This document shows positions 20,485 to 43,496 of a DNA stretch of 50,975 nt, one piece after another; position 1 is the first letter of the stretch, and each line of letters starts with the position of its first letter. A program made the translations under genes and the position numbers. A model generated the notes under the pieces. It ran no database searches and was not told the origin of the DNA. It saw only the letters and a program-made list of their open reading frames with translations. The stretch comes from a phage: sequence record PZ871100.1; one strand, written 5' to 3'.

Positions 20485-20712
20485 TTACAGACTGCAATCA
20501 GCGTTTTTAAAGTTGTCAATGCTTACCCACTGAAAATTAAACGGATAGCCAGCCTTAACAAGAGTTCGATCGCCAACTCGTTTTACTCCAAAAATAGCAA
20601 CTGAATACTGCATGCCGCTATTTTCATAAATACCCGTGCATTCACGCTTAGGCATATTTGCGCAACCAGTCAGGGCAACGGCTGCAATCAAAACGGCGAT
20701 TAACTTTTTCAT
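20485..20712 (-). CDS. small lipoprotein, Cor-like superinfection-exclusion candidate
   Basis: 75 aa; signal peptide with lipobox LTGC; convergent with tail genes; own promoter unit. Confidence 0.55.
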   Translation of the reverse strand: MKKLIAVLIAAVALTGCANMPKRECTGIYENSGMQYSVAIFGVKRVGDRTLVKAGYPFNFQWVSIDNFKNADCSL

Positions 20713-20743
20713 CTTTGCGTCTCCTTCGTTGTTGTTGGTTGCA

Positions 20744-20787
20744 ACTATACACGATCTTGCGGTTGGCGTTTAGCAAAAAGTGCTATT
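20744..20787 (-). promoter_or_regulatory. conserved-box promoter-like unit driving Cor-like lipoprotein gene
   Basis: Minus-strand reading AATAGCACTTTTTGCTAAAC then 17 nt then TATAGT (plus 20744-20749). Confidence 0.55.
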
Positions 20788-20899
20788 CTTGTTCTTTTTG
20801 TTATCCGGTGTTCTCAAATCTGCGGAGTCTTAAATTTAGCTCAAAAAGCGAACAACAATAGAGCGCAATACATACAGATAAATATATATACATACATAT

Positions 20900-21050
20900 A
20901 AATCAATAAGTTAGTAGTATATATATTCATGTTTGTTCTTTATTGTTATCTATGTTTTGTGTGATTTTGTGTGTCTGGTGATTTTTCTGTGGTTATGCAT
21001 GTGTCATTGGTTATATGTGTCTATATATCTATATCCGGCGCAAATTGAGG
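20900..21050. repeat. GT-rich noncoding element A (homolog of 42403-42600)
   Basis: Shares exact 16-mer AAATCAATAAGTTAGT (20900-20915) and diverged GT-rich tract with element B. Confidence 0.6.
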
Positions 21051-21156
21051 AACAAGAGAACAAAAGATAACAAAGATATTTATCAATCACTTACATGTAA
21101 GTTTTGTTATCTAAGTTGGTTATAACGTTATTAGAACAGAAAAAACAAAATAACTA

Positions 21157-21184
21157 TTGACTAAACGCATCAAATAGCTACAAT
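21157..21184 (+). promoter_or_regulatory. sigma70-like promoter (TTGACT - 16 nt - TACAAT) upstream of exonuclease gene
   Basis: -35 at 21157-21162, -10 at 21179-21184, about 30 nt upstream of the ATG. Confidence 0.5.
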
Positions 21185-21213
21185 GCAGAAATACCAACCA
21201 ATGAGGGCAAATC

Positions 21214-22275
21214 ATGAATAAGTTTATGGCGTACACCAGCGAAGAAATGAGCAATGAGCTTTATCACGATCCAGAAGCGTTGACGGCTGATTATGTTAGT
21301 GGATCAAGCCTTGCAGAGATTTACAGCACATGCCCGGCAGCGTGGAAGTTCAAGCCGCGTGAAGATAAGAGCAAGGCGCTAGTTTTCGGTACGCAGTCGC
21401 ATACCAACTTTGAAAGCAAGGAGCTTTTCGAAAAAACCTACCGCCGTGCACCAGCGCCAGAAGACTTTAAGGATCTGATAACCAGCCAAACGGCGCTTGC
21501 TGCAAAGCTAAAATCATTTGGCCTGAAAGGTACAACAGGAAAGACTTACCCTGAACTTATAAAAATGTTGGTTGACTGCGGAGAAGACCTTAACGTTATG
21601 TGGTTAATCGACATGATCGCAGAAAGCCAGGCCAGGGCCGATGGGGTTCAGTTAATCGAAGCTAAAGATTACGATGCGTGCGTGGCAATGCGCCAGGTTC
21701 TTGAATCAATACCGGAACATAACGCATGTATGAATAGCAAGACGGCACAACGTGAATTATCGTTGTTCGGTGAAATCAACGGCGTAAAAGTCAAAGTGCG
21801 ATGCGATCACGTTGACGTAACAAAGAATGTGACAGCAACTCTGATTGATGGTTACGATGAAAAAGGTCAGCCGATTTGCCGCGATATTATTTATCCAGAA
21901 GCTATTGTGATCACTGACTACAAAACAACAATGAGCGCTAATCCGGTTGAGTTTATGCGCCTGGCTTACAATCACGGCTATTATTTGAAAATGGCGTTGC
22001 AATGTGATTTATTCAGAAAAGCGTATCCAGAAGAAAAGCGACCTATAGTTGTTCGACTGTTAGCGCAAGAGAAGAAAGAGCCTTATTTGCCGTTGGCTTT
22101 CCGCATGAACAGCGAGCAATTGAAGATCGGGCGCATTCAGTACATGAGCGTAATTAACCAGTTTGCCATGTGCCAGCAACATGACGTTTGGCCTTCGTAT
22201 TCAAACGGCGAGCCGGAGGTTTGCCTTGATACTCCTGATTGGGTGCGACGCCAGTTTAAGCAATATCTTATTTAA
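21214..22275 (+). CDS. PD-(D/E)XK-type exonuclease (RecE/YqaJ-like, putative)
   Basis: 353 aa; D...ITDYKTT motif; immediately upstream of ERF and SSB; sigma70-like promoter upstream. Confidence 0.5.
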   Translation: MNKFMAYTSEEMSNELYHDPEALTADYVSGSSLAEIYSTCPAAWKFKPREDKSKALVFGTQSHTNFESKELFEKTYRRAPAPEDFKDLITSQTALAAKLKSFGLKGTTGKTYPELIKMLVDCGEDLNVMWLIDMIAESQARADGVQLIEAKDYDACVAMRQVLESIPEHNACMNSKTAQRELSLFGEINGVKVKVRCDHVDVTKNVTATLIDGYDEKGQPICRDIIYPEAIVITDYKTTMSANPVEFMRLAYNHGYYLKMALQCDLFRKAYPEEKRPIVVRLLAQEKKEPYLPLAFRMNSEQLKIGRIQYMSVINQFAMCQQHDVWPSYSNGEPEVCLDTPDWVRRQFKQYLI

Positions 22276-22284
22276 ACAGCACAA

Positions 22285-22318
22285 ATAGCTAAACAAATGA
22301 AAAATGCGGTGTTATAAT
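22285..22318 (+). promoter_or_regulatory. variant box-like element with TATAAT inside a hairpin
   Basis: AAATAGCTAAACAAATGAAAA then GCGGTG TTATAAT TCACCGC; upstream of gene 22357. Confidence 0.35.
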
Positions 22319-22356
22319 TCACCGCATAAGTTAACAACAAGCGTAAGGAAATAAAC

Positions 22357-22635
22357 ATGGAAAACAAACAAGTGTCAGAGGTAGCAGTTCATATCAATAA
22401 TTTTGCAACTGGCATGGCTATGTTGCTTCGTGACTTTGTGGCGCCGCTTGATCCAGCGGCAGGCGCAGAAGAAATGGAGTACATCAGAAAAGTAATGGAT
22501 GCAGTCGATAACGTCGTACTTGTTGCAACAATGAGCGAAGACAACGAGGAAGCAATCAAGGCGGTAAAAGAAAGTTCTGATCGCATGATGGAAAATCTGA
22601 TTAAATTACACACCAAAGAAGAAACAAAACATTAA
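22357..22635 (+). CDS. hypothetical protein
   Basis: 92-aa acidic ORF with AAGGAA RBS. Confidence 0.4.
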   Translation: MENKQVSEVAVHINNFATGMAMLLRDFVAPLDPAAGAEEMEYIRKVMDAVDNVVLVATMSEDNEEAIKAVKESSDRMMENLIKLHTKEETKH

Positions 22636-22680
22636 CAGCAATAAGGCGGCGAAAGCCGCCATTAATTACGGGAATTAATC

Positions 22681-23337
22681 ATGAAACTATCAGAGCAATT
22701 CGACAAGGTTTTACCAGCACTGCATAAGGCGCGTAGTTTGTTTGTAAAGGTGAAGAAGGATAAGCAAAATACGCACCTTAAAAACCGTTACGCAACGCTT
22801 GATGCCGTACTTGATGCAATCACTCCAGCATTGAATGATAACGAGCTAATGTTGATGCAGGACATGATTGAAAGCGAACAACCAAACAGAATCAAGGTTG
22901 AGACAACCGTTCTTCATGTTTCCGGTCAGTGGGTGAAATTTTACGCAGAGCTACCAATCGTTAAAAACGACCCTCAAGGTGTCGGATCTGCATTCACATA
23001 CGCGCGTCGATATGCAGCAGCAGCAGCATTTGGCTTAAGCCAGGCAGACGATGACGCACAGATTGCCGTTAAATCCGCAAACGACTGGAAGCGTGACATT
23101 GAGAAATGCGAAAGCGTAAACGAATTACAAGAAGTGCTCAAATCAGCATGGAAGGCAAGCGATCCGGCAAGCAAGCAGGTAATTAAAGAGCATTACGAAA
23201 AGCGCAAGGCAGAACTTGAGATCGGAAAAGCACGAGGATTTAATCCAGCGCAACCAAAACAAAATCTTGCCGATCAAGACGTTGACACAAAAAACGACGA
23301 GCAAGTAAAATCACAAAGCATAACTGATTTTGAATAA
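22681..23337 (+). CDS. ERF-family single-strand annealing protein
   Basis: [13 protein letters not shown] and [18 protein letters not shown] motifs characteristic of ERF. Confidence 0.75.
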
Positions 23338-23381
23338 TTGACATGGGGCGCTTGCGCCCCTTTCTTACAGGAGAATAAATA

Positions 23382-23822
23382 ATGCATATTATTACTGGTG
23401 AGATCCGAAAAGAGCCGCGAGTAAAGCAAATGCCTAACGGCAGCACGCTTTATGTGGTTGAACTTTCAGAGCGATACAAAGATAAAGATGGAAATTGGCA
23501 ATATACAAACTACAGTTTCTTTTTTAATGCCAAAACAGAAGGTCTTAATGGTTGGTATGCTGAGGCGTTCCAGGTTGGAAAGGTTATTTCTGTATCTTGC
23601 GACACGCTGCGCATAGAAACGCGTGAATATAACGGAAAGATGTATTCAAGTTTATTGCCTGGTGGATTCGCAAATCTTATATTCAGCCAGCGCGGAGAAG
23701 GCCAGCCGCAACAGCAACAACAAGGAGGATGGGGCCAGCCACAGCAACAGAATCAACAGCAACAACAACCCAAACAAAGCAATCAACCTCCTATGGACTT
23801 TGACGACGACATTCCTTTCTGA
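23382..23822 (+). CDS. ssb: single-stranded DNA-binding protein
   Basis: OB-fold N-terminus, Gln/Gly-rich linker, acidic tail MDFDDDIPF. Confidence 0.9.
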   Translation: MHIITGEIRKEPRVKQMPNGSTLYVVELSERYKDKDGNWQYTNYSFFFNAKTEGLNGWYAEAFQVGKVISVSCDTLRIETREYNGKMYSSLLPGGFANLIFSQRGEGQPQQQQQGGWGQPQQQNQQQQQPKQSNQPPMDFDDDIPF

Positions 23823-23827
23823 TCAAC

Positions 23828-23850
23828 AAAGGGGCATTACGCCCCTTTTT
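23828..23850. terminator. bidirectional terminator between ssb and convergent minus block
   Basis: AAA GGGGC attac GCCCC TTTTT. Confidence 0.65.
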
Positions 23851-24094
23851 CACTTTCAGCGATTCCAAGCACGGCAATAACCTTGACAGCAATTCGCTTT
23901 GCAAGTTCAGTTTGATTCGCGTTCAGCTTTCCGGTGGTCATTATTGACAACATTCCGCTCATACTTCCAAGACCGTTAAAATCTGACATTGCCGATTTCA
24001 TGATTGATATTGGTGAATGACCTTCATCAGCTATTGTGTGCGCTCTCTCTGACAGGTCTTTAACTACCTGATCAATTCCTTCACTTTTCGTCAT
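23837..24094 (-). CDS. hypothetical protein
   Basis: 85-aa ORF with AAGGAAAA RBS, last gene of the minus block. Confidence 0.35.
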   Translation of the reverse strand: MTKSEGIDQVVKDLSERAHTIADEGHSPISIMKSAMSDFNGLGSMSGMLSIMTTGKLNANQTELAKRIAVKVIAVLGIAESEKGA

Positions 24095-24572
24095 TTGCTT
24101 TTCCTTCAGTAGTTGATTGCTGTTCTGGCATTATAGGCCACGGGCTAATTGATTCCCTTTCTGCTACTGGTTTTTCAGGTTCAATACCTAAAAACTTTCC
24201 TACAAACTCACCAACAAAATTTGAGCTATCGCTTACATAAACATGCATCCTGTCTAGATCTGCAACCGTAACGCTATTTGGTGCGATCATGATCCTCTGT
24301 TGGTGAAAACCGATATACATCACATTTGCCGGACGCTCAATAGTTCCCATATTTGGCGCAATTACGCCCATTATCCAACAATAATGAATGTTGCCATCAA
24401 GCGGCTCACATCCAGCGTTAAGCCAGTTTACTTTCTGGTGTGGGAATGCCATTGATGAATCAGTAGCATCACGCCGCAACGACCATTTAACGCCTCCAAT
24501 CTCAATGATTTGTTTTGGCCTCATTCCGTTGAATTGAGTCACGCCAGCGCCATTTTGATTAATGTTTTGCAT
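24081..24572 (-). CDS. hypothetical protein
   Basis: 163-aa ORF, RBS AAGGTGA. Confidence 0.45.
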   Translation of the reverse strand: MQNINQNGAGVTQFNGMRPKQIIEIGGVKWSLRRDATDSSMAFPHQKVNWLNAGCEPLDGNIHYCWIMGVIAPNMGTIERPANVMYIGFHQQRIMIAPNSVTVADLDRMHVYVSDSSNFVGEFVGKFLGIEPEKPVAERESISPWPIMPEQQSTTEGKANDEK

Positions 24573-24586
24573 ATCGGTTCACCTTG

Positions 24587-24910
24587 TTACATTGATTTCA
24601 TTTTACGCAATGCGCAGACACAAGCGGCAGCAAGATCGGTTAATTCTTTCTCAATGCCATGATGCGATCCGTCTGCCTTTTCGGTCATTAGCTCTTTGTA
24701 TTCCATTTCTACAATCGACATTAAGCCGCCAGGCTTGTCAATGTGCGCGTCCCAGGTCTTAGGATGGTGCTTAGTTCTTTCAATAACACTTCCCATAACT
24801 GCATCATGTTCATGATCTCGATCATAATCTCTATCATGGCCATTTCCTCCAATTACTACTCGCGGCAAATGCACGCGTGGTAAATGATAGCCAGCGACAC
24901 GAATTTTCAT
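24587..24910 (-). CDS. hypothetical His/Asp-rich protein (tandem HLPRV)
   Basis: 107 aa; GAGGA RBS immediately after terminator hairpin; HLPRVHLPRV and DRDYDRDHEHD. Confidence 0.45.
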   Translation of the reverse strand: MKIRVAGYHLPRVHLPRVVIGGNGHDRDYDRDHEHDAVMGSVIERTKHHPKTWDAHIDKPGGLMSIVEMEYKELMTEKADGSHHGIEKELTDLAAACVCALRKMKSM

Positions 24911-24926
24911 GAGTATATCCTCTTAT

Positions 24927-24949
24927 AAAAAAGCGCCCCGAAAGGCGCT
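24927..24949 (-). terminator. terminator-like hairpin after glycine-rich protein gene
   Basis: Minus strand AGCGCC tttcgg GGCGCT then TTTTTT, then RBS of next gene. Confidence 0.55.
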
Positions 24950-24959
24950 TGATTTATTA

Positions 24960-25661
24960 TCAGCCGCAACAGCCAGTAGGCGGAGTCTGCGGAGTAGGCA
25001 ACTTGAAGTTTACCAATTGCTCTACCTGGTTGATTTTGCAATTCAGTGCGGCGGTCTGGTTTGCCTGAGATAGAGCAAATCGCGCCTCCTGCAACTGAGC
25101 TTTCATATCGCAAATCAATACAGCCTGAGAATCAGCGAACTGTTGACGCATCAGATCTCGCGTTGCGTTACCTTGTCGCTCAATGTTCAGGTTTGTCTCG
25201 CAGCAACATCTCTCGGCTGCAATCTGTGCCTGATAGGAACGCTCAAGAGCATTAACATCAGCAGCATTAATCGCAGCAACTGTCTGGTTAGTACCGCTAA
25301 CAATCGCGGTATTCAGTCCGGCGAAACCTTGCACCGATGCAAGCAGGCTTTGCGTATTCTGGCTGGTAATGCCGTTAAAGGTTGATGCTGCGGAGCGCTC
25401 AACGGTAAGGTTTGTTGAGTTTTGGCCTTGCAGAGTTTGCAGACCCAGGTTGTTTACGCCTGTCTGGATGTTATTAATACCATCAAGAACAGCGTTAGCA
25501 CCGACAGCAACAGCAGCACCATCACCACCATAACCACCACGACCATTAAAGCCGTTACCAAACCATGAACCAATCAGGCCGCCAACAGCACCACCAAGTC
25601 CAGCCGCGCCAGCTTCGCCACCAAAACCACCACCAGTAGGGAGTAAAGTCATATCTGACAT
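24960..25661 (-). CDS. glycine-rich protein with CCC / CCG cysteine clusters (function unknown)
   Basis: ATG 25661 with AGAGGA RBS; ~60-aa Gly-rich N-terminus, Gln/Asn/Thr-rich middle, CCCETN and C-terminal GCCG. Confidence 0.6.
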   Translation of the reverse strand: MSDMTLLPTGGGFGGEAGAAGLGGAVGGLIGSWFGNGFNGRGGYGGDGAAVAVGANAVLDGINNIQTGVNNLGLQTLQGQNSTNLTVERSAASTFNGITSQNTQSLLASVQGFAGLNTAIVSGTNQTVAAINAADVNALERSYQAQIAAERCCCETNLNIERQGNATRDLMRQQFADSQAVLICDMKAQLQEARFALSQANQTAALNCKINQVEQLVNFKLPTPQTPPTGCCG

Positions 25662-25838
25662 AGTAAATTCCTCTTTGACGTTAAAAAAAATTAAAAAAGT
25701 TTGCAACATTTATGTTACGACAAAGAGTATGCGCCTAACTGTCGGGAATAGATATAAATCATTTGTAAGCGATATGTAAGCAACTGGCATAAAGACGAAA
25801 AAAGCGCAGCCTGAGCCGCGCCTTTTGATTATTTTTTG

Positions 25839-27425: not shown

Positions 27426-27483
27426 GCGTTTTCTCCCATGTTGCATGTTAATGTCAATGCAGATAATAGCATTTGATAAGGCC

Positions 27484-27506
27484 AAAAAAAACCCCGCAAT
27501 GCGGGG
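27484..27506 (-). terminator. terminator after primase gene
   Basis: Minus strand CCCCGC att GCGGGG then 8 T. Confidence 0.65.
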
Positions 27507-27524
27507 TAAAAGTAGCAGTGACAT

Positions 27525-28986: not shown

Positions 28987-28999
28987 TATTCATTCTCCA

Positions 29000-31121: not shown

Positions 31122-31527
31122 TAAAGGCGATTATCTGGAGTTTTACGAAAGAGATCCGACAGATACGCTAAAAGAGGAATCGCACCAGATCGGGGCGTTT
31201 CAATGGTTGACTTATGCATACCCTGAATTGCTGGCATGGCATACGAAAAACGAGGGCGACAAGGGGATCGCTACAGCAATGATGGATCAGCAAGCTGGGC
31301 TTGTTAAGGGCGTAAGTGATTTTATCATCCTGATTGGATTAAAAGGCCGTTACCCGTTCGCGGCAATTGAGATGAAGCGCGTCAATAAGTCCGGCAAGGG
31401 TAAGGCTTCACCAGTCAGCAAAGAGCAAAAAGCCTTCTTGCGACGTGTGCGTGAGCTTGGCGGATTCGCCGCCGTAACATACGGATATAAGCAATTCATG
31501 ATCGCTGTAGAATACATGATGAAATAG
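31108..31527 (+). CDS. VRR-NUC domain nuclease
   Basis: 139 aa; SDFIIL...AIEMKR...KEQKAF motif arrangement of PD-(D/E)XK VRR-NUC. Confidence 0.65.
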   Translation: MAMTDKGDYLEFYERDPTDTLKEESHQIGAFQWLTYAYPELLAWHTKNEGDKGIATAMMDQQAGLVKGVSDFIILIGLKGRYPFAAIEMKRVNKSGKGKASPVSKEQKAFLRRVRELGGFAAVTYGYKQFMIAVEYMMK

Positions 31528-31567
31528 CACTTTTTGTTAAAACAGGCGCGAAGGATTGCGCCATAAT
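31524..31567 (+). promoter_or_regulatory. conserved-box promoter-like unit upstream of Dam-like gene
   Basis: Box ATAGCACTTTTTGTTAAAAC 31524-31543, inverted repeat GGCGCG...CGCGCC in spacer, CATAAT 31562-31567; upstream stop TAG inside box. Confidence 0.6.
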
Positions 31568-32303: not shown

Positions 32304-32307
32304 AGCC

Positions 32308-32565
32308 ATGCAAAAAGAAAGAAGCATTTATTTAAATGAAACTGGAAAGTGGTTGTTATTTCGCGCTATGGTATGCGATGCACTTGATAAAAACCCTAAC
32401 GTGAAAAAGATGATTGATTGCGATCCGTGGGAATTTTCAAGCGCATTAGATATGAGCTTTGAGGAGACAAAAAAACTACCGCTTGAAAAATGGAGCGAGC
32501 AAATCAGAAATGACATGCAAGAATTTGTCGATTCGTGGAATTTTCAGCACGGAATGATCCACTAA
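32308..32565 (+). CDS. hypothetical protein
   Basis: 85 aa from ATG 32308; stop TAG embedded in promoter box. Confidence 0.4.
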   Translation: MQKERSIYLNETGKWLLFRAMVCDALDKNPNVKKMIDCDPWEFSSALDMSFEETKKLPLEKWSEQIRNDMQEFVDSWNFQHGMIH

Positions 32566-32608
32566 TAGCACTTTTTGTTAAAACGCCCGACCTTGTGTCG
32601 GGCATAAT
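32565..32608 (+). promoter_or_regulatory. conserved-box promoter-like unit
   Basis: Box 32565-32584, spacer inverted repeat GCCCGAC...GTCGGGC, CATAAT 32603-32608, leader CATCAAAACGA. Confidence 0.6.
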
Positions 32609-34412: not shown

Positions 34413-34628
34413 ATGAAAGATTTTTTAAACGCTGCAACTTCCGGCACTGGCGGCGCGTCAATCACTGGCGCGGTAACTGGTCAAACAACTATTGCAATAG
34501 CCAGCTTCGTTTTGATGGCTGCATTTGGTATGTGGGGCGCTTATCTTCGCTGGCGTGATAGTAAGGCGCTACGTGACGCGCTTGAATGCGGTGATATTAA
34601 GAAAGCTATTGAGATCAGAGGTAAATAA
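34413..34628 (+). CDS. holin (putative, single TM)
   Basis: 71 aa; one hydrophobic helix; charged C-terminus; directly upstream of endolysin with ATGA overlap. Confidence 0.6.
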
Positions 34629-35116
34629 TGAGTATAAAACAAAGAGTGACAGCTGCGGCTTTTGGCGTTGCTCTTGCCCTTACTTCTCCGCTACTGGAGG
34701 AAATAGAAGGAGTAAAACATAAGCCGTACAAAGATATTGCTGGGATATGGACGGTTTGCGCCGGAATAACTGGACCTGACGTAATACCAGGCAAAACGTA
34801 CACACAGAGAGAGTGCGATGCGCTACTGGCAAAGCATATCAAGATCGCAAAGGATGAAGTTGATAAACGTGTGAAGGTTGAGATTCCTGATACAATGCGC
34901 GCAGCGATGTATTCATTCACATACAATGCTGGCACTGGTGCTTTTAGAAATTCAACCATGCTTAAGCTGATTAATAACGGTCGTTATATGGAAGCGTGCA
35001 ATCAGTTATGGCGATGGACAAAATACACCAATCCAAAAACAGGAAAGAAAGAAACGTCTAAAGGACTGCGCAACCGCCGCGCGGTGGAATTTAAATATTG
35101 CATTAAGGATCTGTAA
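34628..35116 (+). CDS. endolysin (phage lysozyme, GH24-like)
   Basis: 162 aa; [26 protein letters not shown] signature region. Confidence 0.8.
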
Positions 35117-35118
35117 TC

Positions 35119-35517
35119 ATGAGAAAGTTATCAGCAATCGCGATCGCTGTTATTTTGTCTGGATGTTCAAGCGTTACGCCACTGACCGGATTAATCGGTA
35201 GTAAGCCGGAAATCACAGCACAGGCAGGAGCGGAGAACGTAAAGCAGACCGTTGGCGTTACCGCAAAGCAGGACACCAGCACGAAACAGGAAACTACAAT
35301 AAAGGAATCTGCGGTTGATAAGGTGGACACTTCCAGCAAGAAGGATTTCACTACGTCAACCATTCAGGCAAACACCATCAAGGCTGATAAAATCCAGGTT
35401 GTGCAGGGTGAGCAAAGGAAGTGGTACGATCCTATAATCTATTGCGCTGCAATTTTCAGTGGTCTTTTGACTATGCTTTACTTTTCCTACCGCAAAGATA
35501 ACAAAAAGGAGGCTTAA
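35119..35517 (+). CDS. unimolecular spanin (T1 gp11-like)
   Basis: 132 aa; N-terminal lipobox ILSGC and C-terminal TM helix; last gene of lysis cassette. Confidence 0.7.
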   Translation: MRKLSAIAIAVILSGCSSVTPLTGLIGSKPEITAQAGAENVKQTVGVTAKQDTSTKQETTIKESAVDKVDTSSKKDFTTSTIQANTIKADKIQVVQGEQRKWYDPIIYCAAIFSGLLTMLYFSYRKDNKKEA

Positions 35518-35533
35518 CGCCTCCTTTATTTTT
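35508..35533. terminator. terminator at end of lysis cassette (convergent junction)
   Basis: GGAGGC ttaac GCCTCC then TTTATTTTTAT; spanin stop codon in loop. Confidence 0.55.
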
Positions 35534-35750: not shown

Positions 35751-35786
35751 GGTAACTTCCTTTTGTTGTTTCGTTTCGATGAAACA

Positions 35787-35830
35787 AATATACCCGATAC
35801 GAGATCGGGAGTTTTAACAAAAAGTGCTAT
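35787..35830 (-). promoter_or_regulatory. conserved-box promoter-like unit
   Basis: Minus-strand box (plus 35811-35830), spacer inverted repeat CCCGAT...ATCGGG, TATATT (plus 35787-35792), leader CATCGAAACGA. Confidence 0.6.
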
Positions 35831-35947
35831 TCAATACGCTTTACAGTAACCAACAAAACGCCGTCCTCATCACACAAATTATGCTCTGATATATCAAGCG
35901 CTCGCATGTCAGAATGAATGAGCGTTAACATTGCGTGCATGAAGTCG

Positions 35948-36340
35948 TCATGTGAGATTGAACTTACGGCGCAGAACTTCAATATTTTGTCTATTAGCAT
36001 TTGACGTAAACAATTCTTCATCGCTCATTTCTCCGATCCTTAAAACATCCCTTACCCATTCGTTTTGCATACCTTCCAGACTGTAAAGTTCAAACGAGAA
36101 AGGTCGATTTGCAGACCCTTTCTTACACCAGAACTTTCCACCAACTCCATCAAGATAACCAGCGGTCATCATTCTTGCGCAAAACTCTTTTGAAACGGCG
36201 GTTGCAAACATTCTCGGCGTAAATCCTGCGGCCCTTGCGAGCCGCTCACATTCTCTATGCTGAAATATAAATTTTGCGATATGTTGACGTGTAAACCATT
36301 CGAATGACTCACACCAGCGATACAGATCCAGAAGAAACAT
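35948..36340 (-). CDS. hypothetical protein
   Basis: 130 aa; start 2 nt after the upstream stop. Confidence 0.45.
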   Translation of the reverse strand: MFLLDLYRWCESFEWFTRQHIAKFIFQHRECERLARAAGFTPRMFATAVSKEFCARMMTAGYLDGVGGKFWCKKGSANRPFSFELYSLEGMQNEWVRDVLRIGEMSDEELFTSNANRQNIEVLRRKFNLT

Positions 36341-36342
36341 AA

Positions 36343-37926: not shown

Positions 37927-37953
37927 TGGTGATAACTCCTTTTTGATGCGGCA

Positions 37954-37997
37954 ATAATACCGCACCAATGCTACCCGCATTTAACAAAAAATGCTAT
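37954..37997 (-). promoter_or_regulatory. conserved-box promoter-like unit upstream of P-loop NTPase gene
   Basis: Minus-strand ATAGCATTTTTTGTTAAAT, 18 nt, TATTAT (plus 37954-37959). Confidence 0.55.
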
Positions 37998-38215
37998 TTG
38001 ATCCGCTCTATGCTAACTAAGATTTTTTCTGGTTCCTTTGCACTATGGCAATGCGCGGTTACAGAATCAACAAAATCAAAGTAAAGTGATTTGTGATATG
38101 AGAATCCAATCAGCCACCCAACCATCGTTTTCTTTATTGGCCTGACTATATCGCCAGGCTTAAAGGTTTTTGTTGCCGAATGAGTCACCTTATAGCGATG
38201 TTCAGCCTTGATCAC
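37994..38215 (-). CDS. hypothetical protein (GTG start)
   Basis: GTGA overlap with upstream stop. Confidence 0.3.
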   Translation of the reverse strand: MIKAEHRYKVTHSATKTFKPGDIVRPIKKTMVGWLIGFSYHKSLYFDFVDSVTAHCHSAKEPEKILVSIERIK

Positions 38216-38598
38216 TTATACATAGCCTCAAACAAATGACAGCCACCAGCGGAAAATCCAACTTCTTCGCGGTACAGCGTCCAGCGGTCGCCAGCTTCAT
38301 CAAACACATAACCAGCAACAGCGCCAAGCGCGCGGCCTTGCTCAATCTGGTAGCGCTTTCCTTCTTTGAAATGCTTTTTGCAAGGGATCTTGTGATCTAC
38401 AAAGGTGCATTTAATTGTTTTTGTCTTGATATGACGATAGTCAGACTCAACCGCGTTTTGCCACTTGCTACCATTTGTAATGCTCTTTACCTGGAATTGT
38501 TCCAACTCGATCACATCATCGCTACCAGCAATTTTTTCGTATACGGTTTTATAGCGCCCGTTCATCAAAACGTTGGTTTTATTGCAGATAACTTTCAT
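38212..38598 (-). CDS. hypothetical protein
   Basis: 128 aa; AAGGAG RBS; promoter unit upstream. Confidence 0.45.
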   Translation of the reverse strand: MKVICNKTNVLMNGRYKTVYEKIAGSDDVIELEQFQVKSITNGSKWQNAVESDYRHIKTKTIKCTFVDHKIPCKKHFKEGKRYQIEQGRALGAVAGYVFDEAGDRWTLYREEVGFSAGGCHLFEAMYK

Positions 38599-38629
38599 CG
38601 TTTATTTCTCCTTTCGTTTCGGTGAAATG

Positions 38630-38673
38630 ATTATGCCAGGCTTTTACACCTGGCTTTTAACAAAAAGTGCTAT
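38630..38673 (-). promoter_or_regulatory. conserved-box promoter-like unit
   Basis: Minus-strand box (plus 38654-38673), spacer inverted repeat GCCAGG...CCTGGC, CATAAT (plus 38630-38635), leader CACCGAAACGA; methyltransferase-like stop TAG in box. Confidence 0.6.
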
Positions 38674-39380
38674 TTTGCGTTTGCTTCAAAGACGGCGCGA
38701 GCAAAGCCGCGCGGAGTGAGGGAGCGGATCATCTTTGTGCGCGATGATTTTCCGCCAGTTTTGGCCCAACCAGGATTATCCTTGTCACCCTCTTTCGGAA
38801 GGATTGTTGAGCGCGGAGGAATAACAAATCCGTTTCCAGTCCAAAGGCATGTTTTCTTAAAGTACCGATCCCGCGCCGGAATAATATCAGGGAAGTCGGG
38901 ATGCTTATCATCTTCCTGCAGATAGCCAGCATAATCGCACGGATGGAACGTATAATCAGGCTTACGCCATAACGTTGACAGCTTGCCTACAGGATTTTCG
39001 ATCATGTAAGGAACGCCGAAATAATCAGCGATATGCGCCGCGATTCTGCAAGTGTCGGCGGCCTCATCCTGGAAAGAGGGATTCTCAAGGCGTTTTTTGG
39101 ACCAATGGCGAGATCCGCTATTTGCAAGGTCAGTGCACGGCGGAAATGCCATAATGAAATCAGGCTTGCCCCAATTTTCAAGTTTTGCGGTATATTTGAA
39201 TAGCTCATCAATCCACACATTAACGTAAAAAATATTATCATGGATTATGCGCACTGATTGGTAATCTCCATGATCTGCATCATCGTAATTAAAGCAAATG
39301 CATTTATATCCAGCATCAGCCCAATCTTTAACGGCTTTACCAGATCCATCAAACAAAGAGAATATTAAACCTTTATACAT
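38670..39380 (-). CDS. DNA C5-cytosine methyltransferase-like protein (putative)
   Basis: Motif I-like FSLFDGSG, motif IV-like FPPCTD, motif VI-like MIENPVG; stop TAG inside promoter box. Confidence 0.5.
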   Translation of the reverse strand: MYKGLIFSLFDGSGKAVKDWADAGYKCICFNYDDADHGDYQSVRIIHDNIFYVNVWIDELFKYTAKLENWGKPDFIMAFPPCTDLANSGSRHWSKKRLENPSFQDEAADTCRIAAHIADYFGVPYMIENPVGKLSTLWRKPDYTFHPCDYAGYLQEDDKHPDFPDIIPARDRYFKKTCLWTGNGFVIPPRSTILPKEGDKDNPGWAKTGGKSSRTKMIRSLTPRGFARAVFEANAK

Positions 39381-39389
39381 TTCATCACC

Positions 39390-39614
39390 TCAAAACGGAA
39401 AGCATCTAGGGCAGTTCGGATCAAAATTGCAACCACAATCATTAACAATCATGGTTGGATCTGCAAATGCAGCGCCGCATTCATGGTCCATATCCATTTC
39501 ACCCAACGCATCATCAAGCGTCCTGATTTTATATGCGACCTCAAGCGCGGCCTCTTTATTCAGTCCGGCATCTTCTGCTTTTTGCAGTCGCTCAAAAAAA
39601 CCGTCTTGACTCAT
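39390..39614 (-). CDS. hypothetical Cys-rich protein
   Basis: 74 aa; C-terminal DHECG...DCGCNFDPNCPRC; 9 nt upstream of methyltransferase-like gene. Confidence 0.4.
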   Translation of the reverse strand: MSQDGFFERLQKAEDAGLNKEAALEVAYKIRTLDDALGEMDMDHECGAAFADPTMIVNDCGCNFDPNCPRCFPF

Positions 39615-39724
39615 TTAATAAACTCCTTAACAACAGCAAGAATAATCACAAGCCCAGCAGTAAAAACAAGCAAACCGACAAGGCCAATCATAACACCAAA
39701 TAAAATATCAAGCGCCTTAATCAT
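39611..39724 (-). CDS. small membrane peptide (37 aa)
   Basis: Not in ORF track; MIKALDILFGVMIGLVGLLVFTAGLVIILAVVKEFIK; ATGA overlap with downstream gene. Confidence 0.35.
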   Translation of the reverse strand: MIKALDILFGVMIGLVGLLVFTAGLVIILAVVKEFIK

Positions 39725-39771
39725 TTATTCACCATTGATAAAATGGGAGGCGGCAACCTCCCATTGATTAA

Positions 39772-39999
39772 TCATACAGCCTTCCAGCTTTCAATAAACA
39801 TGCTGTTTTCTTCCAGAAGTTTAATCAATTCTTCGCGCGTATATTTGCGGATTTTACTACCTGGATGTGAGCCAACAACAAACACACCTTTACCACTCGT
39901 GATGGTTAACTGGTTGATTCCGCAAGATTTATCCATTTTCACGGCGACGCGGTGATGTGCATCAACAGTGTGCATGATGTTAGTGACTTTAGCTTTCAT
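39772..39999 (-). CDS. hypothetical protein
   Basis: ATG 39999 with GAGGA RBS and promoter unit upstream; 75 aa. Confidence 0.45.
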   Translation of the reverse strand: MKAKVTNIMHTVDAHHRVAVKMDKSCGINQLTITSGKGVFVVGSHPGSKIRKYTREELIKLLEENSMFIESWKAV

Positions 40000-40029
40000 T
40001 ATGCAATCCTCATTATATTTGGTTTGGTA

Positions 40030-40072
40030 ACTATACCAGGTTTGAGAAATATTGTTTAGCAATTCGTGCTAT
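40030..40072 (-). promoter_or_regulatory. conserved-box promoter-like unit (variant ATAGCACGAATTGCTAAAC)
   Basis: Minus-strand box (plus 40054-40072), 18 nt, TATAGT (plus 40030-40035). Confidence 0.55.
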
Positions 40073-40173
40073 AAGTTGAAATAGCTATGGCGCTTTGCTC
40101 GCTTGCCGTCTCCGCCATAATGATCATTTGCAACAGCTACCATCCAGGAATTATGGAATATTATTAGCTTCAT

Positions 40174-40455
40174 CTAATTAATGCCAACAACGTTAAAACT
40201 TACAGCTTTTGTTGCGCTAAATACATACGCTTCAACAGCCTCACCAAATACACGAATTTTTCCATAGCCGTACTGCGCATTCATATTGCGCCAAACCGTC
40301 CTGTTAGAGCAGAACGCGTTACCAGTCTTGATAAGATTATCCATCTCTTTTCTTAGATCATGATAATCAAGCCAAAATCTATAAGCGCGTTGTTTAATGA
40401 GTTTCGCTTTGATTGTTTCGGCTGAGTTTTTAAAATCGCTGTTTTTGTAGGCCAT
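40174..40455 (-). CDS. hypothetical protein
   Basis: 93 aa; TAATG overlap with upstream gene. Confidence 0.4.
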   Translation of the reverse strand: MAYKNSDFKNSAETIKAKLIKQRAYRFWLDYHDLRKEMDNLIKTGNAFCSNRTVWRNMNAQYGYGKIRVFGEAVEAYVFSATKAVSFNVVGIN

Positions 40456-40649
40456 TACACAACCTCCATAATAGTATTGAATCCACGCAGTTTGAAAGCA
40501 TTTCCATGTTTAACAACGTTCCATGTCAGGCCGGAGTGATACGCAACCATATCCTCAAGATCAATGGTGATGATAGCGCCTTTTTTAAAGATTCCTTTCT
40601 CGTGAGTGGTGTCACGCTGTACAACTTTAACATCAACTTGATTTTCCAT
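40455..40649 (-). CDS. hypothetical protein
   Basis: 64 aa; promoter unit and conserved leader (CATCGACAACGA...GAGGA) upstream. Confidence 0.45.
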   Translation of the reverse strand: MENQVDVKVVQRDTTHEKGIFKKGAIITIDLEDMVAYHSGLTWNVVKHGNAFKLRGFNTIMEVV

Positions 40650-40680
40650 TTTTAAATCCTCGTTCGTTGTCGATGCGCTT

Positions 40681-40724
40681 AATATACCAATCAGAGGCGC
40701 ATAGGTTTTAACAAAAAGTGCTAT
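40681..40724 (-). promoter_or_regulatory. conserved-box promoter-like unit
   Basis: Minus-strand box (plus 40705-40724), 18 nt, TATATT (plus 40681-40686), leader CATCGACAACGA. Confidence 0.55.
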
Positions 40725-41011
40725 TCAACAACAGATCCAGTTAAAGAGATAAGTGCTCTTGTGATCTTGTGTCTGCGATACTGACGCGCAACAACCGGAA
40801 GATTTTCACCGCTCTGATGACCCAAACAGATCGGCAACTCACCCTCAAGAGAGCGGAAGCCGCCAAATTCAAGATCCCGCACTGGCTTTGAGCGCCACGC
40901 TTCAATAAATCCGCGTTCGTCACGAGTGATATAGCGGTATATGTTAGGGAGGGGCAATTGTATCCCCTCAAAATCCACGGTATCGGTATAGCTGTAAAAC
41001 TTAGAACTCAT
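40721..41011 (-). CDS. hypothetical protein
   Basis: ATG 41011 with GGAG RBS; 96 aa. Confidence 0.4.
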   Translation of the reverse strand: MSSKFYSYTDTVDFEGIQLPLPNIYRYITRDERGFIEAWRSKPVRDLEFGGFRSLEGELPICLGHQSGENLPVVARQYRRHKITRALISLTGSVVE

Positions 41012-41153
41012 AGTCAACAACTCCAAATTCGTTAACAATTTGCGCCTTATAGAAGCCGCCATTTTTCGCAAGGTTGTAGCATGCCGCCACAGTTTCAAAT
41101 TCGCGCACTTCCGGCTTGCTGTTTTCGTGTTCCCAGGTAATCAGAGTAACCAT
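41001..41153 (-). CDS. hypothetical small protein (50 aa)
   Basis: Not in ORF track; GAGGA RBS; leader near-identical to that of 40455..40649. Confidence 0.35.
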   Translation of the reverse strand: MVTLITWEHENSKPEVREFETVAACYNLAKNGGFYKAQIVNEFGVVDYEF

Positions 41154-41186
41154 TTTTAAATCCTCGTATTCGTTGTCGATGTGTGT

Positions 41187-41230
41187 AATGTACAGGAATA
41201 CGAGGATTGAGTTTTAACAAAAAGTGCTAT
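41187..41230 (-). promoter_or_regulatory. conserved-box promoter-like unit
   Basis: Minus-strand box (plus 41211-41230), 18 nt, TACATT (plus 41187-41192), leader CATCGACAACGA. Confidence 0.5.
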
Positions 41231-41497
41231 TTAGTCCAGGAATTCGATTTCGCGCTCGCCAGTTAACGGATCTTTGATCCAGAATCCGAGCGCCTCACCG
41301 TAAATGCCGCCATAGAATCCAAGCGCCGACAGATCCTCACCTTTAACAAATACCAGATCACCGCTACGGCTTACGTGAGACACGTTAACGATAACCGGAA
41401 ATGTGCGGTTTTTAAATGCAGGCCGCAGGACGTAGCATCCATTGTTAAGCAGTCGTGCTTTGCGTTTCACCGGAATAGGTGCATTGATTCGCGCCAT
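41231..41497 (-). CDS. hypothetical protein
   Basis: ATG 41497 with AAGGAG RBS; 88 aa. Confidence 0.4.
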   Translation of the reverse strand: MARINAPIPVKRKARLLNNGCYVLRPAFKNRTFPVIVNVSHVSRSGDLVFVKGEDLSALGFYGGIYGEALGFWIKDPLTGEREIEFLD

Positions 41498-41510
41498 CTT
41501 TATTTCTCCT

Positions 41511-41756
41511 TCATTGTTGATCGTGTTTAACGGCAATCAGAACATCACAGGACTCGTTAATGAATTTAGCCATGCGCTTATCATCACCAACAGGTATTAG
41601 CGCATTAAACTCGCGTTTGCTACTGAATACCGTCACTTTATGAAATGATGCGAACGGCATCGACGGGAACTCTACTGTTTGCGTCAGTATACGCAATCCC
41701 ATCTTTTTGGCCCTTACTTGGGCCTCAGCGAGTTCAAAATCCACTTCATTAATCAT
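41511..41756 (-). CDS. hypothetical protein
   Basis: 81 aa; ATGA overlap with upstream gene. Confidence 0.4.
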   Translation of the reverse strand: MINEVDFELAEAQVRAKKMGLRILTQTVEFPSMPFASFHKVTVFSSKREFNALIPVGDDKRMAKFINESCDVLIAVKHDQQ

Positions 41757-42025
41757 TTCTTGATCTCCTCAGCAATAAACTTCAGGACTTTGCGCAAAAA
41801 CACTTCATTATTGATGGTCGCTGGCAATTCTTCTTTTACTTCTTGCGGCAGGTAAACGTTGCCATGCCAGGTTAAGCAATCGTAGTTGATACGATAAGAG
41901 CAAAGCCACTCGCAATCGTTATCCGCTTCCCAAATGCAGAGTTGCAGAACATCGCCGAAATTCTCAACAGTCAGGTCCAGACCATGACGCTTGGCGAAAT
42001 TGAAAGTGGTTTTGCTGATGTTCAT
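41753..42025 (-). CDS. hypothetical protein
   Basis: 90 aa; AGGAG RBS; promoter unit and conserved leader upstream. Confidence 0.45.
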   Translation of the reverse strand: MNISKTTFNFAKRHGLDLTVENFGDVLQLCIWEADNDCEWLCSYRINYDCLTWHGNVYLPQEVKEELPATINNEVFLRKVLKFIAEEIKK

Positions 42026-42064
42026 TTGCTTTCTCCTGATTGGTATCTCGTTTCGATGTATGCA

Positions 42065-42107
42065 TTATGACAAATACAGTCAGGCACGTTTTAACAAAAA
42101 GTGCTAT
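42065..42107 (-). promoter_or_regulatory. conserved-box promoter-like unit (first of the minus small-gene block)
   Basis: Minus-strand box (plus 42088-42107), 17 nt, CATAAT (plus 42065-42070), leader CATCGAAACGA. Confidence 0.6.
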
Positions 42108-42402
42108 TTGCTGACTGGTCATTATTCCATATATTCCATTAATCAGGAATAACAGGAATAACTCATTCGCGATCACCTGGATTGGGAGACTTTGAGTTTG
42201 GTCAATTTTAATCAAGTGATTAACTTTTTGTGTGGAGGGGATAGAGAAACGCGATCCTCTCGCACCCTTTCCGGCAATCCTGGCGCGCAACATGTTCATT
42301 ATGTTTCCAGCCGTTCACGCAAATAAGCCTCCGCAGTTCTTCCACGTTTCATGCTGTCATGCACACAAAAGAAACAATGTAAAATCTATATAAATACACA
42401 TT

Positions 42403-42600
42403 AAATCAATAAGTTAGTTATATATGTATTTATATTTGTTTCTTATTGTTCTTGTTGTGTGATGGTTATTGGTATATGTTGCGATTTTTGTGTTGGTGGA
42501 TATTGATTGTTTATTGTTCGATTTGGTTGATGATTATGGTTGCTCATGGTTGCGTATGATTCTTGATGTATTTATGTATATATCCGCGAAAATTCGCGAA
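42403..42600. repeat. GT-rich noncoding element B (homolog of 20900-21050)
   Basis: 16-mer AAATCAATAAGTTAGT at 42403-42418, GT-rich tract, inverted repeat CGCGAA aa TTCGCG near 3-prime end. Confidence 0.6.
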
Positions 42601-42707
42601 CAGCCACACAGCCAAAAAACATGATGAGGATTCTTTTGAAATCATGCACTTAACTGCGAATTTTGTTTCCGCGCAATCTCCACACGTATAGCGAACAATT
42701 AGAACGC

Positions 42708-42737
42708 TTGACATAGGCGCGGCGTGGTGGCAACATT
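42708..42737 (+). promoter_or_regulatory. possible sigma70-like promoter (perfect TTGACA, weak -10) with adjacent inverted repeat
   Basis: TTGACA 42708-42713; weak -10 CAACAT/AACATT about 17-18 nt downstream; GGTGG...CCACC inverted repeat overlaps. Confidence 0.3.
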
Positions 42738-42774
42738 GCAACCACCAAAAACAGAGCAAATAGGAGTTACACCC

Positions 42775-43236
42775 ATGACCATGACAAGCAAGGAATTTTG
42801 CGATATGTTGCGAGTTAATGCAGCCTCACTAGCTAACGGGGATGTTAGCGAACTGCAAATCAAGGAGCTTGACTTGCAATGTAATATTGCGCCGGAAGAC
42901 TTGAGGAAAATTAACGCCTCATACATCCGAACGATTATGAATCGAACGCCGGAGGTGAAAGCCGTTGGCGTGGTGAAGGTTGAACGCGTTCGAGGCGATG
43001 CTGACATTCCTGATTGTTATCGCGTAACAATTAACCAGAATCCAAAGCGCCGCTTGCTGACAGATGAAGAACTGCCAAAACTTGAAAGTAAGTGGCGAGC
43101 AAAGTTTATTGCTCAACTGCTTAAAACACAGCCGCGAATCAGCGATCTGGAAGGTGAGCGCCTGGAAGGTGCGGCAATCGCACTTGAGCGAATGAATGAA
43201 ATGCTTAACGATATGGTAAAGATGGAGGATGAATAA
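42775..43236 (+). CDS. hypothetical protein (first gene after noncoding region B)
   Basis: ATG 42775 with AGGAG RBS; 153 aa. Confidence 0.45.
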   Translation: MTMTSKEFCDMLRVNAASLANGDVSELQIKELDLQCNIAPEDLRKINASYIRTIMNRTPEVKAVGVVKVERVRGDADIPDCYRVTINQNPKRRLLTDEELPKLESKWRAKFIAQLLKTQPRISDLEGERLEGAAIALERMNEMLNDMVKMEDE

Positions 43237-43496
43237 TGACTAAGGCATTAATTGGAGTTTTGATTGCAATCGCTACCCTGACCGGATGCGAAAAGGCATC
43301 GGAATCAACGGTTGTAGCAGGCGTGGAGTCAGATTTCAAAGTCGGTCGCCTGTTCACTGTTGACGGATGCACAGCATACAGATTCTATGATAACGGTCGC
43401 GCGATCTATTACACCAATTGCAAAGGCGCAACGAATAGCACGCGCAACAGCGGAAAGTACATAATGCACCAGCAAGTCACAACAGATATTGAATAG
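43236..43496 (+). CDS. small lipoprotein (second Cor/Llp-like candidate)
   Basis: 86 aa; signal peptide and lipobox LTGC; GGAGG RBS; TAATG overlap. Confidence 0.5.
   Translation: MTKALIGVLIAIATLTGCEKASESTVVAGVESDFKVGRLFTVDGCTAYRFYDNGRAIYYTNCKGATNSTRNSGKYIMHQQVTTDIE

Follow-up and report, generated by a model that had tools for sequence, protein, structure and literature searches.

Does a phage that carries two small lipoprotein genes block two receptors? The question is raised by a 50,975-nt stretch of phage DNA (PZ871100.1; "the window" hereafter denotes this whole sequence) from a T1-like, Hanrivervirus-like coliphage of the Drexlerviridae, ~95% identical to phage vojen. The original prediction placed one gene at 20485-20712 on the minus strand (ORF1) and the other at 43236-43496 on the plus strand (ORF2), and clean translations with an LTGC lipobox are indeed obtained from both. 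Both also pass the PROSITE lipoprotein rule PS51257, and the two are unrelated as claimed: profile-profile comparison (hhalign) pairs 18 columns, spanning the signal peptide and lipobox alone. The proposal that both are receptor-blocking, Cor/Llp-like lipoproteins stands for ORF1, on the strength of HMM, motif, and synteny evidence, and for ORF2 is not supported by homology, cysteine arrangement, fold, location, or co-occurrence. We put at roughly three in four the probability that these are two unrelated phage lipoproteins with different jobs, ORF1 being Cor and ORF2 a DUF4884-type lipoprotein.

By itself, a lipobox is weak evidence for a lipoprotein gene in this window: across six frames, with every start codon allowed, nine ORFs match PS51257, where mononucleotide shuffles yield ~1. 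Of the nine, five are internal or antisense. ORF1 and ORF2 can be regarded as real lipoprotein genes because of family conservation; the lipobox cysteine is invariant among 11 Cor sequences (the ORF1 family) and among 94 relatives of ORF2, and dN/dS values, mostly 0.13-0.46 across the two genes, indicate purifying selection on both.

A third bona fide lipoprotein gene, missed by the original prediction, lies at 35119-35517 (plus strand) and encodes a unimolecular spanin (u-spanin) with an LSGC lipobox (Cys16) and a C-terminal transmembrane segment (C-terminal sequence ...IIYCAAIFSGLLTMLYFSY; phrog_1804, E = 3.2e-50). It completes a lysis cassette (34413-35517) that also contains holin (34413-34628) and endolysin (34628-35116) genes, and its 105 N-terminal residues are 87% identical to a FritzSarasin protein annotated as a u-spanin. 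The unimolecular spanin gp11 of T1 (47% identity) has the same lipobox, transmembrane segment, and position after holin and endolysin. Phage proteins with a lipobox therefore need not be exclusion proteins.

ORF1 encodes a predicted superinfection-exclusion outer-membrane lipoprotein of 75 aa, beginning MKKLIAVLIAAVALTGC and preceded by an AAGGAG Shine-Dalgarno sequence 7 nt upstream; lipobox Cys17 is followed by Ala-Asn, with Asp absent at +2. The whole-protein HMM NCBIfam NF047972 scores it at 70.1 bits (cut-off 31; E = 1.1e-19), and PHROG 1119 matches with an E-value of 3.7e-29. Cor of T1 shares 55% identity with it and Cor of phi80 38%; ES18 Cor also matches. An alignment of 11 Cor sequences, including those of T1, phi80, and ES18, is invariant at Cys17, at the Cys25 and Cys73 columns, and in the AGYPF motif; Cys24, Cys72, and A54-G-Y-P-F58 of ORF1 all fall within invariant columns. 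Compared with the Cor proteins of T1, phi80, N15, HK022, and ES18, ORF1 has the same length (75 aa), lipobox, two further cysteines, motif, and gene placement after J and two small genes, and differs by sequence divergence only. Near-identical genes in GenBank are already labelled Cor. The reading of ORF1 as a predicted Cor-type exclusion lipoprotein is fully supported.

The host-recognition locus that contains cor begins with a J-like tail tip protein gene (16039-19464, plus strand; a 1141-aa ORF), the product of which is 69% identical to T1 J, 90% to FritzSarasin J, and 99% to the vojen tail protein. The extended cor cassette opens with a small gene (19508-19813, plus strand, with its start codon following the vojen annotation) that resembles gp22 of N15 and phi80 (phrog_557, E = 1.7e-29); its product is 61% identical to that of the T1 gene downstream of J, and its position is that of PHI80_22 in phi80. 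The second gene (19815-20456, plus strand) resembles gp23 of N15 and phi80, a "membrane associated protein" (phrog_425, E = 1e-67; 55% identity to the T1 homologue); no homologue was found in FritzSarasin or JeanPiccard, which carry other receptor modules. A predicted bidirectional hairpin terminator at 20457-20476, with an 8-bp stem (AAAGGGGC...GCCCCTTT) and T-runs on both strands, separates this gene from the convergent cor. The order of these four genes is identical in T1 and phi80; cor runs opposite to the tail operon in this phage and in T1, and in the same direction in phi80. The three-gene cor cassette has been reported in 10 BASEL phages, every one a FhuA user (PMC13164509), in agreement with the original assignment of ORF1 to a T1-like, FhuA-dependent phage, for which HMM membership, conserved motifs, and synteny also speak. 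FhuA specificity of this Cor is suggested by synteny and by such correlations in the literature. Cor itself is already known and brings nothing new; its presence confirms a FhuA-type host-recognition cassette in this phage, and the receptor can therefore be predicted.

Directly upstream of cor, at 20744-20787 on the minus strand, lies a promoter-like repeat (AATAGCACTTTTTGCTAAAC ... TATAGT). The 21-mer it contains occurs 17 times against 0 expected by chance, with a −10-like hexamer at a constant +20 offset. An exact copy of the 21-mer immediately follows ORF2 (43492-43540, plus strand), with a GCCAGG...CCTGGC hairpin (−11.3 kcal/mol) and CATAAT at +20; a TAG within this copy is the ORF2 stop codon, and the next gene downstream begins at 43570. 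The repeated intergenic element probably works as a promoter, in which case cor would have its own copy to drive transcription opposite to that of the tail operon. It is the promoter-like sequences that point to early timing for both cor and ORF2.

The mechanism by which ORF1 would act on FhuA is suggested by work on T5 Llp and on other Cor proteins. The Llp-FhuA mechanism has been described, and a disulfide is common to Llp and Cor (PMC9586334). When the Cor profile was compared with the PDB, the top match, at a weak E-value of 0.004, was T5 Llp (8a60_B), from the FhuA-Llp complex (8A60). The two share a lipoprotein design, a disulfide that ties the termini together, and, probably, action on FhuA from the periplasm. 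However, ORF1 is only ~20% identical to Llp, the relationship is remote, and the Pfam model PF24052 (Phage_lipoprotein) scores ORF1 at 13.6 bits, below its threshold of 27 and matching the signal peptide alone. By this analogy, a Cys24-Cys72 disulfide would join both ends of Cor, which may bind FhuA at its periplasmic face (plug) and lock the receptor in a state unusable by phage tail tips. Cor would thereby exclude superinfecting FhuA-dependent phages and spare progeny from loss on cell debris.

The J locus and ORF2 (86 aa; N-terminus MTKALIGVLIAIATLTGC) are separated by 23 kb; ORF2 comes second in the first rightward early operon. A σ70-like promoter candidate for this operon can be read at 42708-42736 on the plus strand (TTGACA, 17 nt, CAACAT); a consensus scan missed it because its −10 is weak. 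The first gene (42775-43236, plus strand) encodes a DUF7174 protein (PF23796, 148.5 bits; phrog_4841), the stop codon of which overlaps the ORF2 start in TAATG, with GGAGGA upstream of ORF2. ORF2 would be translationally coupled, in an operon beside the physical genome end. The predicted protein contains lipobox Cys18, internal Cys45 and Cys62, and a core of RLFTVDGCTAYRFYDNGRAIYYTNC. Against Pfam PF16225 (DUF4884) it scores 26.0 bits at full length and 27.0 bits for the mature part, short of the gathering score (30). The same model is matched over the conserved core, with E ≤ 0.01 (best 8.9e-8), by each of the 94 aligned relatives, and precomputed annotations place PF16225 on every ORF2 homologue. 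PHROG 6360 matches ORF2 at 4e-11, and near-identical genes in Henu8 and JLBYU phages are labelled "DUF4884 domain-containing protein." Pfam describes DUF4884 as mainly Bacteroides proteins; the ORF2 branch, also small lipoproteins sharing the model core, is instead carried by phages of Proteobacteria. In total, 206 relatives were found, and cluster representatives at 50% identity number 1434; the lipobox cysteine and the internal cysteine pair are invariant in the family. ORF2 dN/dS is 0.13-0.21 in two of three pairs; the closest pair, of low divergence, gives 0.70. An AF2 model of moderate confidence (pLDDT 78.5, pTM 0.55) predicts six beta strands, and none of the solved folds searched matched this meander; the mature part would be a 69-residue, disulfide-braced beta meander.

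These features mark ORF2, on sequence criteria, as a probable DUF4884-like lipoprotein unrelated to Cor or Llp. Nothing of its mature domain is paired with ORF1 by hhalign, and searches of NCBIfam and PHROGs with ORF2 did not match the Cor family. A Cor/Llp-type disulfide tying the termini does not fit the conserved cysteines, which lie mid-domain and 17 residues apart, and the model gave no fold match to Llp; with T5 Llp, ORF2 has in common its nature as a small lipoprotein and nothing else. Nor does it adjoin, or appear to be inherited with, a receptor-binding module. In a handful of complete genomes, ORF2 occurs alongside three different receptor modules and is missing from T1, which has Cor. 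FritzSarasin, without Cor and with a lipoprotein of its own in a different receptor locus, carries ORF2 at 87% identity; the LptD phage JeanPiccard, which also lacks Cor, carries it at 54%. A lambdoid prophage of Pantoea carries its relative in the nin region, and on unrelated phage contigs relatives lie within arrays of small early genes; no relative was beside tail genes or a receptor-binding module in the neighbourhoods examined, and a search for relatives on plasmids found none. The presence of ORF2 is uncoupled from receptor type, and the gene moves with early genes rather than with receptor modules. The proposal of two receptor-blocking lipoproteins is therefore half supported, with ORF1 as Cor and ORF2 as a member of an unrelated family.

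ORF2 might still be a second receptor blocker, binding the periplasmic face of another outer-membrane protein such as BtuB, LptD, TolC, or a porin and excluding heterologous competitors for the same cell. Its small size, predicted early expression and outer-membrane location, and predicted disulfide recall the general design of Llp and Cor, every Drexlerviridae genome examined contains several small lipoproteins, and receptor blocking of this kind is established for TonB-dependent transporters (PMC9586334). However, the known receptor-specific lipoproteins in the genomes compared are exchanged along with the receptor module, whereas ORF2 is conserved alike (86-87%) in Henu8, which has Cor, and FritzSarasin, which does not. 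Family members also occur in phages of Pseudomonas, Xanthomonas, Serratia, Erwinia, and Pantoea, whose receptors differ, as well as of Escherichia and Salmonella. Given the lack of homology or fold similarity to Cor/Llp and the absence of receptor-binding modules from the neighbourhoods described above, we consider a receptor-blocking role unlikely.

The breadth of Gram-negative hosts across the family points to a universal target, and a short tether at the predicted inner leaflet of the outer membrane would be compatible with an envelope or lysis accessory. Acting from the side of the outer membrane, such a protein would bind a lytic transglycosylase, Lpp/Pal/OmpA, or peptidoglycan, and would thereby make the envelope more stable or tune lysis-from-without or the timing of lysis. 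The lambda nin region, the counterpart of the site of the Pantoea prophage relative, is transcribed during lytic growth only. Yet ORF2 lies outside a lysis cassette that is itself complete, with holin, endolysin, and its own u-spanin, and spanin and lysozyme-inhibitor families are unmatched; as an o-spanin in particular, ORF2 was rejected (O_Spanin_T7 scores it at 11.9 bits; cut-off 25). Such a role seems quite improbable. Slightly more doubtful still is an early anti-defence or host-takeover protein that counters surface defences of the host or its resident prophages (among the latter, for example, exclusion proteins of the Cor, Llp, or TraT type) or silences a sensor of outer-membrane stress such as RcsF; ORF2 does sit in the first early operon among other uncharacterised early genes, and its family is carried almost entirely by phages, but PADLOC and known anti-defence families gave no match, and the argument is one from position alone. 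That one or both lipoboxes arose by chance, in ORFs non-functional as lipoprotein genes, is effectively refuted by conservation: although the PROSITE rule also matches the five internal or antisense ORFs and ORF1 falls slightly under the Pfam LPAM_1 cut-off (19.6 against 20), the invariant cysteine, purifying selection, good ribosome-binding sites, and strong family matches of both genes argue against it.

We return to ORF2 as a DUF4884-type lipoprotein whose job probably differs from that of Cor. Since it belongs with early genes rather than receptor modules, and its family extends across many Gram-negative hosts, ORF2 would most likely bind, during lytic growth, an envelope component that is conserved and faces the periplasm, and not the phage's own receptor. 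More tentatively, DUF4884 may represent a large uncharacterised class of early phage outer-membrane lipoproteins that act on such a component; if so, their action could amount to receptor-independent superinfection exclusion or to envelope takeover, distinct from the Cor/Llp mechanism. Overall the finding is an ordinary one, comprising a known Cor and, in DUF4884, a modest lead. Annotation of ORF2 as an exclusion protein by analogy is unwarranted. The family is small, highly conserved, and easily expressed, making it a cheap target for phenotype screens, and its partner, once known, would reveal other effects that phages exert on the envelope of a Gram-negative cell within minutes of infecting it.

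Both predicted genes are present in the window on the strands proposed for them and translate as given. ORF1 (20485-20712, minus strand) encodes a protein of 75 aa, MKKLIAVLIAAVALTGC-ANMPKREC...DCSL, its ATG preceded at 7 nt by AAGGAG; a bidirectional hairpin terminator (20457-20476) separates ORF1 from the upstream gene, which converges on it. ORF2 (43236-43496, plus strand) encodes 86 aa, MTKALIGVLIAIATLTGC-EKASES..., and has GGAGGA upstream; the stop of the gene before it and its own ATG overlap (TAATG), suggesting that the two are translationally coupled. Both products match the PROSITE lipoprotein rule. By itself this rule is weak evidence in the window, where nine ORFs (any start, six frames) match it as compared with about one in shuffles, and where internal or antisense ORFs account for five of the nine. 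The lipobox predictions nevertheless hold, and ORF1 and ORF2 are validated as lipoprotein genes, because the lipobox cysteine is conserved across each family; this conservation rules out a chance lipobox in either gene. Values of dN/dS are 0.13-0.46, the exception (0.70) being a single very closely related pair that differs at few sites. The two proteins are also unrelated, as had been stated: profile-profile comparison of ORF2 with an alignment of Cor, the family to which ORF1 belongs, pairs the signal peptide and lipobox alone.

A systematic scan recovered a third lipoprotein, overlooked in the original prediction: a unimolecular spanin (35119-35517, plus strand; 132 aa, lipobox LSGC, C-terminal transmembrane segment; phrog_1804, E 3e-50) whose gene directly follows those of the holin (34413-34628) and endolysin (34628-35116) and completes the lysis cassette. 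A 59-aa ORF (48299-48478, plus strand; MKRVIIIFIAIIAGCYLAY...; phrog_14912, of unknown function) carries a lipobox-like IAGC followed by a second hydrophobic segment; a lipoprotein is less likely here than a small membrane protein.

The window is a virulent T1-like coliphage. Nucleotide searches with 2-kb stretches around ORF1 and ORF2 matched approximately 130-160 phage records, the closest being Escherichia phages vojen, Henu8, aalborv, damhaus, and aaroes (93-96% nucleotide identity over these stretches); the vojen and Henu8 records are annotated as Drexlerviridae, Tempevirinae, Hanrivervirus. Gene order follows the convention of the BASEL phage collection (terminase, head, tail, J, recombination, replication, lysis, early genes), and the FritzSarasin genome is colinear with the window. 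About 20 GenBank records (MG065636-MG065687) titled "Campylobacter phage", with Campylobacter jejuni as stated host, are 94% identical to the window over the tested regions 19500-21500 and 42500-44500; these records probably represent T1-like coliphages, either mislabelled or present as contaminants.

The proposal that ORF1 is a Cor-type exclusion lipoprotein is well supported by family scores, invariant residues, and synteny. ORF1 scores 70.1 bits (cut-off 31) on the NCBIfam equivalog model NF047972, "phage exclusion lipoprotein Cor", and matches PHROG 1119 with E 3.7e-29. In tblastn searches it is 92-99% identical to annotated Cor genes of vojen, Henu8, aalborv, and others, and 55%, 40%, and 38% identical to Cor of T1, ES18, and phi80, respectively. 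An alignment of 11 Cor sequences, among them those of T1, phi80, ES18, and two BASEL phages, contains invariant columns at the lipobox Gly-Cys, a Cys 8 residues later, a GYPF motif (with a near-invariant Ala before it), and a Cys 3 residues from the C-terminus; ORF1 retains every one of them. A search of PDB sequences with ORF1 alone gave no meaningful match. The top PDB match of the Cor-alignment profile was Llp, the FhuA-blocking lipoprotein of T5 (8a60_B; weak, E 0.004), in agreement with the published identity of approximately 20% between Llp and Cor, which extends to the disulfide (PMC9586334). Between the J-like tail tip gene (J; 16039-19464, plus strand) and cor lie two small genes, at 19508-19813 (phrog_557) and 19815-20456 (phrog_425), which share 61% and 55% identity with their positional counterparts in T1 and correspond to phi80 gp22 and gp23. 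This three-gene cor cassette occurs in ten BASEL phages, all ten of which use FhuA, and in an AF3 model KanT1 Cor docks on FhuA from the periplasmic side, matching the placement of Llp in the crystal structure (PMC13164509). The FhuA mechanism proposed for ORF1 would be inherited from these studies of Llp and Cor, and as such is well founded. Cor itself is textbook, and is already annotated in near-identical genomes.

The distribution of ORF2 is distinct from that of Cor. Scoring of Cor, the cassette genes, and ORF2 by tblastn in three complete genomes showed that T1 contains Cor and both cassette genes and no ORF2 homologue (E < 0.01). FritzSarasin lacks Cor and the cassette and carries an ORF2 homologue with 87% identity; three unrelated minus-strand genes follow its J, including its own lipoprotein, bas04_0025. 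JeanPiccard, the terminal receptor of which has been mapped to LptD (PMC8594841), likewise lacks Cor and the cassette, with ORF2 54% identical and a lipoprotein, bas02_0025, after J. Additionally, ORF2 is 86% identical in Cor-positive Henu8, level with Cor-negative FritzSarasin, and has a homologue (rtp3) in Rtp, a predicted LptD phage (PMC8594841). Within the genomes compared, these data suggest that exchanges of the receptor module carry the receptor-specific lipoprotein along, while ORF2 stays with the early region. Phages with other receptor modules thus each encode a small lipoprotein of their own beside the J-downstream genes (FritzSarasin 20776-21045 and JeanPiccard 20665-20895, both minus strand); that of FritzSarasin has a Cor/Llp-like cysteine layout (lipid Cys, Cys 13 residues later, Cys beside the C-terminus), though with no detectable homology to Cor past the signal peptide.

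Beyond Drexlerviridae, ORF2 relatives appear in phages of Pseudomonas (Dolphis), Xanthomonas (X1, BUDD), Serratia (MTx, MyoSmar, WR01), Erwinia, and Pantoea. One relative, in a Pantoea chromosome, belongs to a lambdoid prophage, in whose nin region it is flanked by the P replication gene on one side and ninH/ninE/ninG on the other, and in four other metagenomic or genomic contexts relatives lie inside long arrays of small unknown genes; in none of the contexts inspected do they adjoin tail genes. A plasmid search matched no relatives. A genome-contig scan returned four loci, all in Pseudomonas, which are no measure of prevalence since the back-translated pattern was very strict.

The surroundings of the two genes suggest expression apart from the tail genes. 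Approximately 600 nt of noncoding, GT-rich, repeat-like sequence (42110-42700) separates divergent early operons and may be a pac or genome-end region; at the equivalent place, the T1 record has its physical genome end and the start of a 2.8-kb terminal repeat. The first gene after this stretch encodes DUF7174 (42775-43236), and the second is ORF2. A perfect TTGACA at 42708 and, 17 nt beyond it, a weak -10 (CAACAT) form a candidate immediate-early promoter of the host type. A promoter-like 21-mer, AATAGCACTTTTTGTTAAAAC, occurs in 17 copies in the window, nine of them exact (chance expectation 0), including 20768-20787(-), 31523-31543, 32564-32584, 35811-35831(-), 38655-38674(-), 42088-42108(-), 43492-43512, 43956-43976, and 48808-48828; FritzSarasin has 19 copies, T1 10, and JeanPiccard 7. 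Fifteen of the 17 are co-oriented with the next gene, and many overlap the TAG stop of the previous one; the ORF2 stop codon is itself supplied by the copy serving the next gene. Most copies are followed by a -10-like hexamer at a fixed +20, a conserved CATCGAAACGA leader, a Shine-Dalgarno sequence, and ATG. The spacer forms a variable GC hairpin in five or six copies, and the distance of 22 nt from TTGTTA to the hexamer indicates that the element is not a canonical sigma-70 promoter.

The copy at 20768-20787 lies directly upstream of cor, with TATAGT at 20749-20744. The only copies within the plus-strand structural operon (6343-6362 and 10103-10122) are inverted, intergenic—one before the major capsid gene, the other after the major tail gene—and without a -10-like hexamer; their role when read in the plus-strand direction may be a different one, such as attenuation. 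This arrangement suggests that cor is expressed with non-structural rather than tail genes, which would parallel T5 llp, expressed early according to Decker et al. (1994) as cited in PMC11990801. A literature search on Drexlerviridae transcriptomics yielded nothing concerning either gene. A further small lipoprotein gene was observed in T1, which is without DUF4884. Located at 2099-2272, in the first early gene block and within the 2.8-kb repeat annotated at the genome terminus, it encodes an unrelated lipoprotein of 57 aa (lipobox VSGC), and its stop codon falls within a 21-mer copy. This locus may accept different small early lipoproteins as exchangeable cargo.

ORF2 belongs to a catalogued family and is already present in near-identical genomes, where it is annotated as "DUF4884 domain-containing protein" or "hypothetical". 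In the literature searched, mentions of DUF4884 were confined to annotation tables. It scores 26-27 bits against Pfam DUF4884, just under the gathering score of 30, and matches PHROG 6360 (unknown function) with E 4e-11. Profile searches recovered 206 relatives from a 5.8-billion-protein set and, from a 1.84-billion representative set, 1434 cluster representatives at E <= 1e-3 (410 at E <= 1e-10), mostly of 76-120 aa among the matches listed. In the family alignment, a short, variable linker joins the invariant lipobox Cys to a highly conserved core, (R/K)LFTVDGCT(A/V)YRFxDxGRxxY(Y/F)TNCxG, in which Cys45 and Cys62 (precursor numbering) are invariant; no conserved Asp occupies the position following the lipid Cys, and sorting to the outer membrane is accordingly predicted under the standard +2 rule. 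An AF2 model from 94 sequences (pLDDT 78.5) is a six-strand antiparallel meander whose BFVD matches are DUF4884 or unnamed lipoproteins only. Foldseek comparison of a 28-sequence model (pLDDT 67.5) with the PDB found no significant neighbour (best E 1.0), and a PDB search with the ORF2 profile found nothing meaningful. In aalborv (NC_049829.1, 36116-36319), an unannotated homologue matches residues 19-86 only and may have lost its signal peptide, which would make it a natural knockout.

The two-lipoprotein exclusion reading therefore stands for ORF1 and is unsupported for ORF2. That ORF2 blocks a specific receptor in the manner of Cor or Llp is possible but unlikely: only its signal peptide and lipobox align with Cor, and its gene is uncoupled from the receptor module. 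Weaker still are a role in lysis or envelope stability, with an o-spanin specifically rejected on family score and location, and an anti-defence role, PADLOC having returned no match among the window lipoproteins or their neighbours. The lambda nin region is transcribed during lytic growth only. Given an early gene kept across receptors and hosts, with a prophage relative in that region, the most economical reading is that ORF2 would be made early and would bind some conserved part of the envelope while the phage develops lytically; it could plausibly act in "lytic conversion" or in a form of exclusion that does not depend on the receptor. While the combined finding of two lipoproteins is ordinary, its residual interest lies in DUF4884 as a large family of putative early phage lipoproteins.
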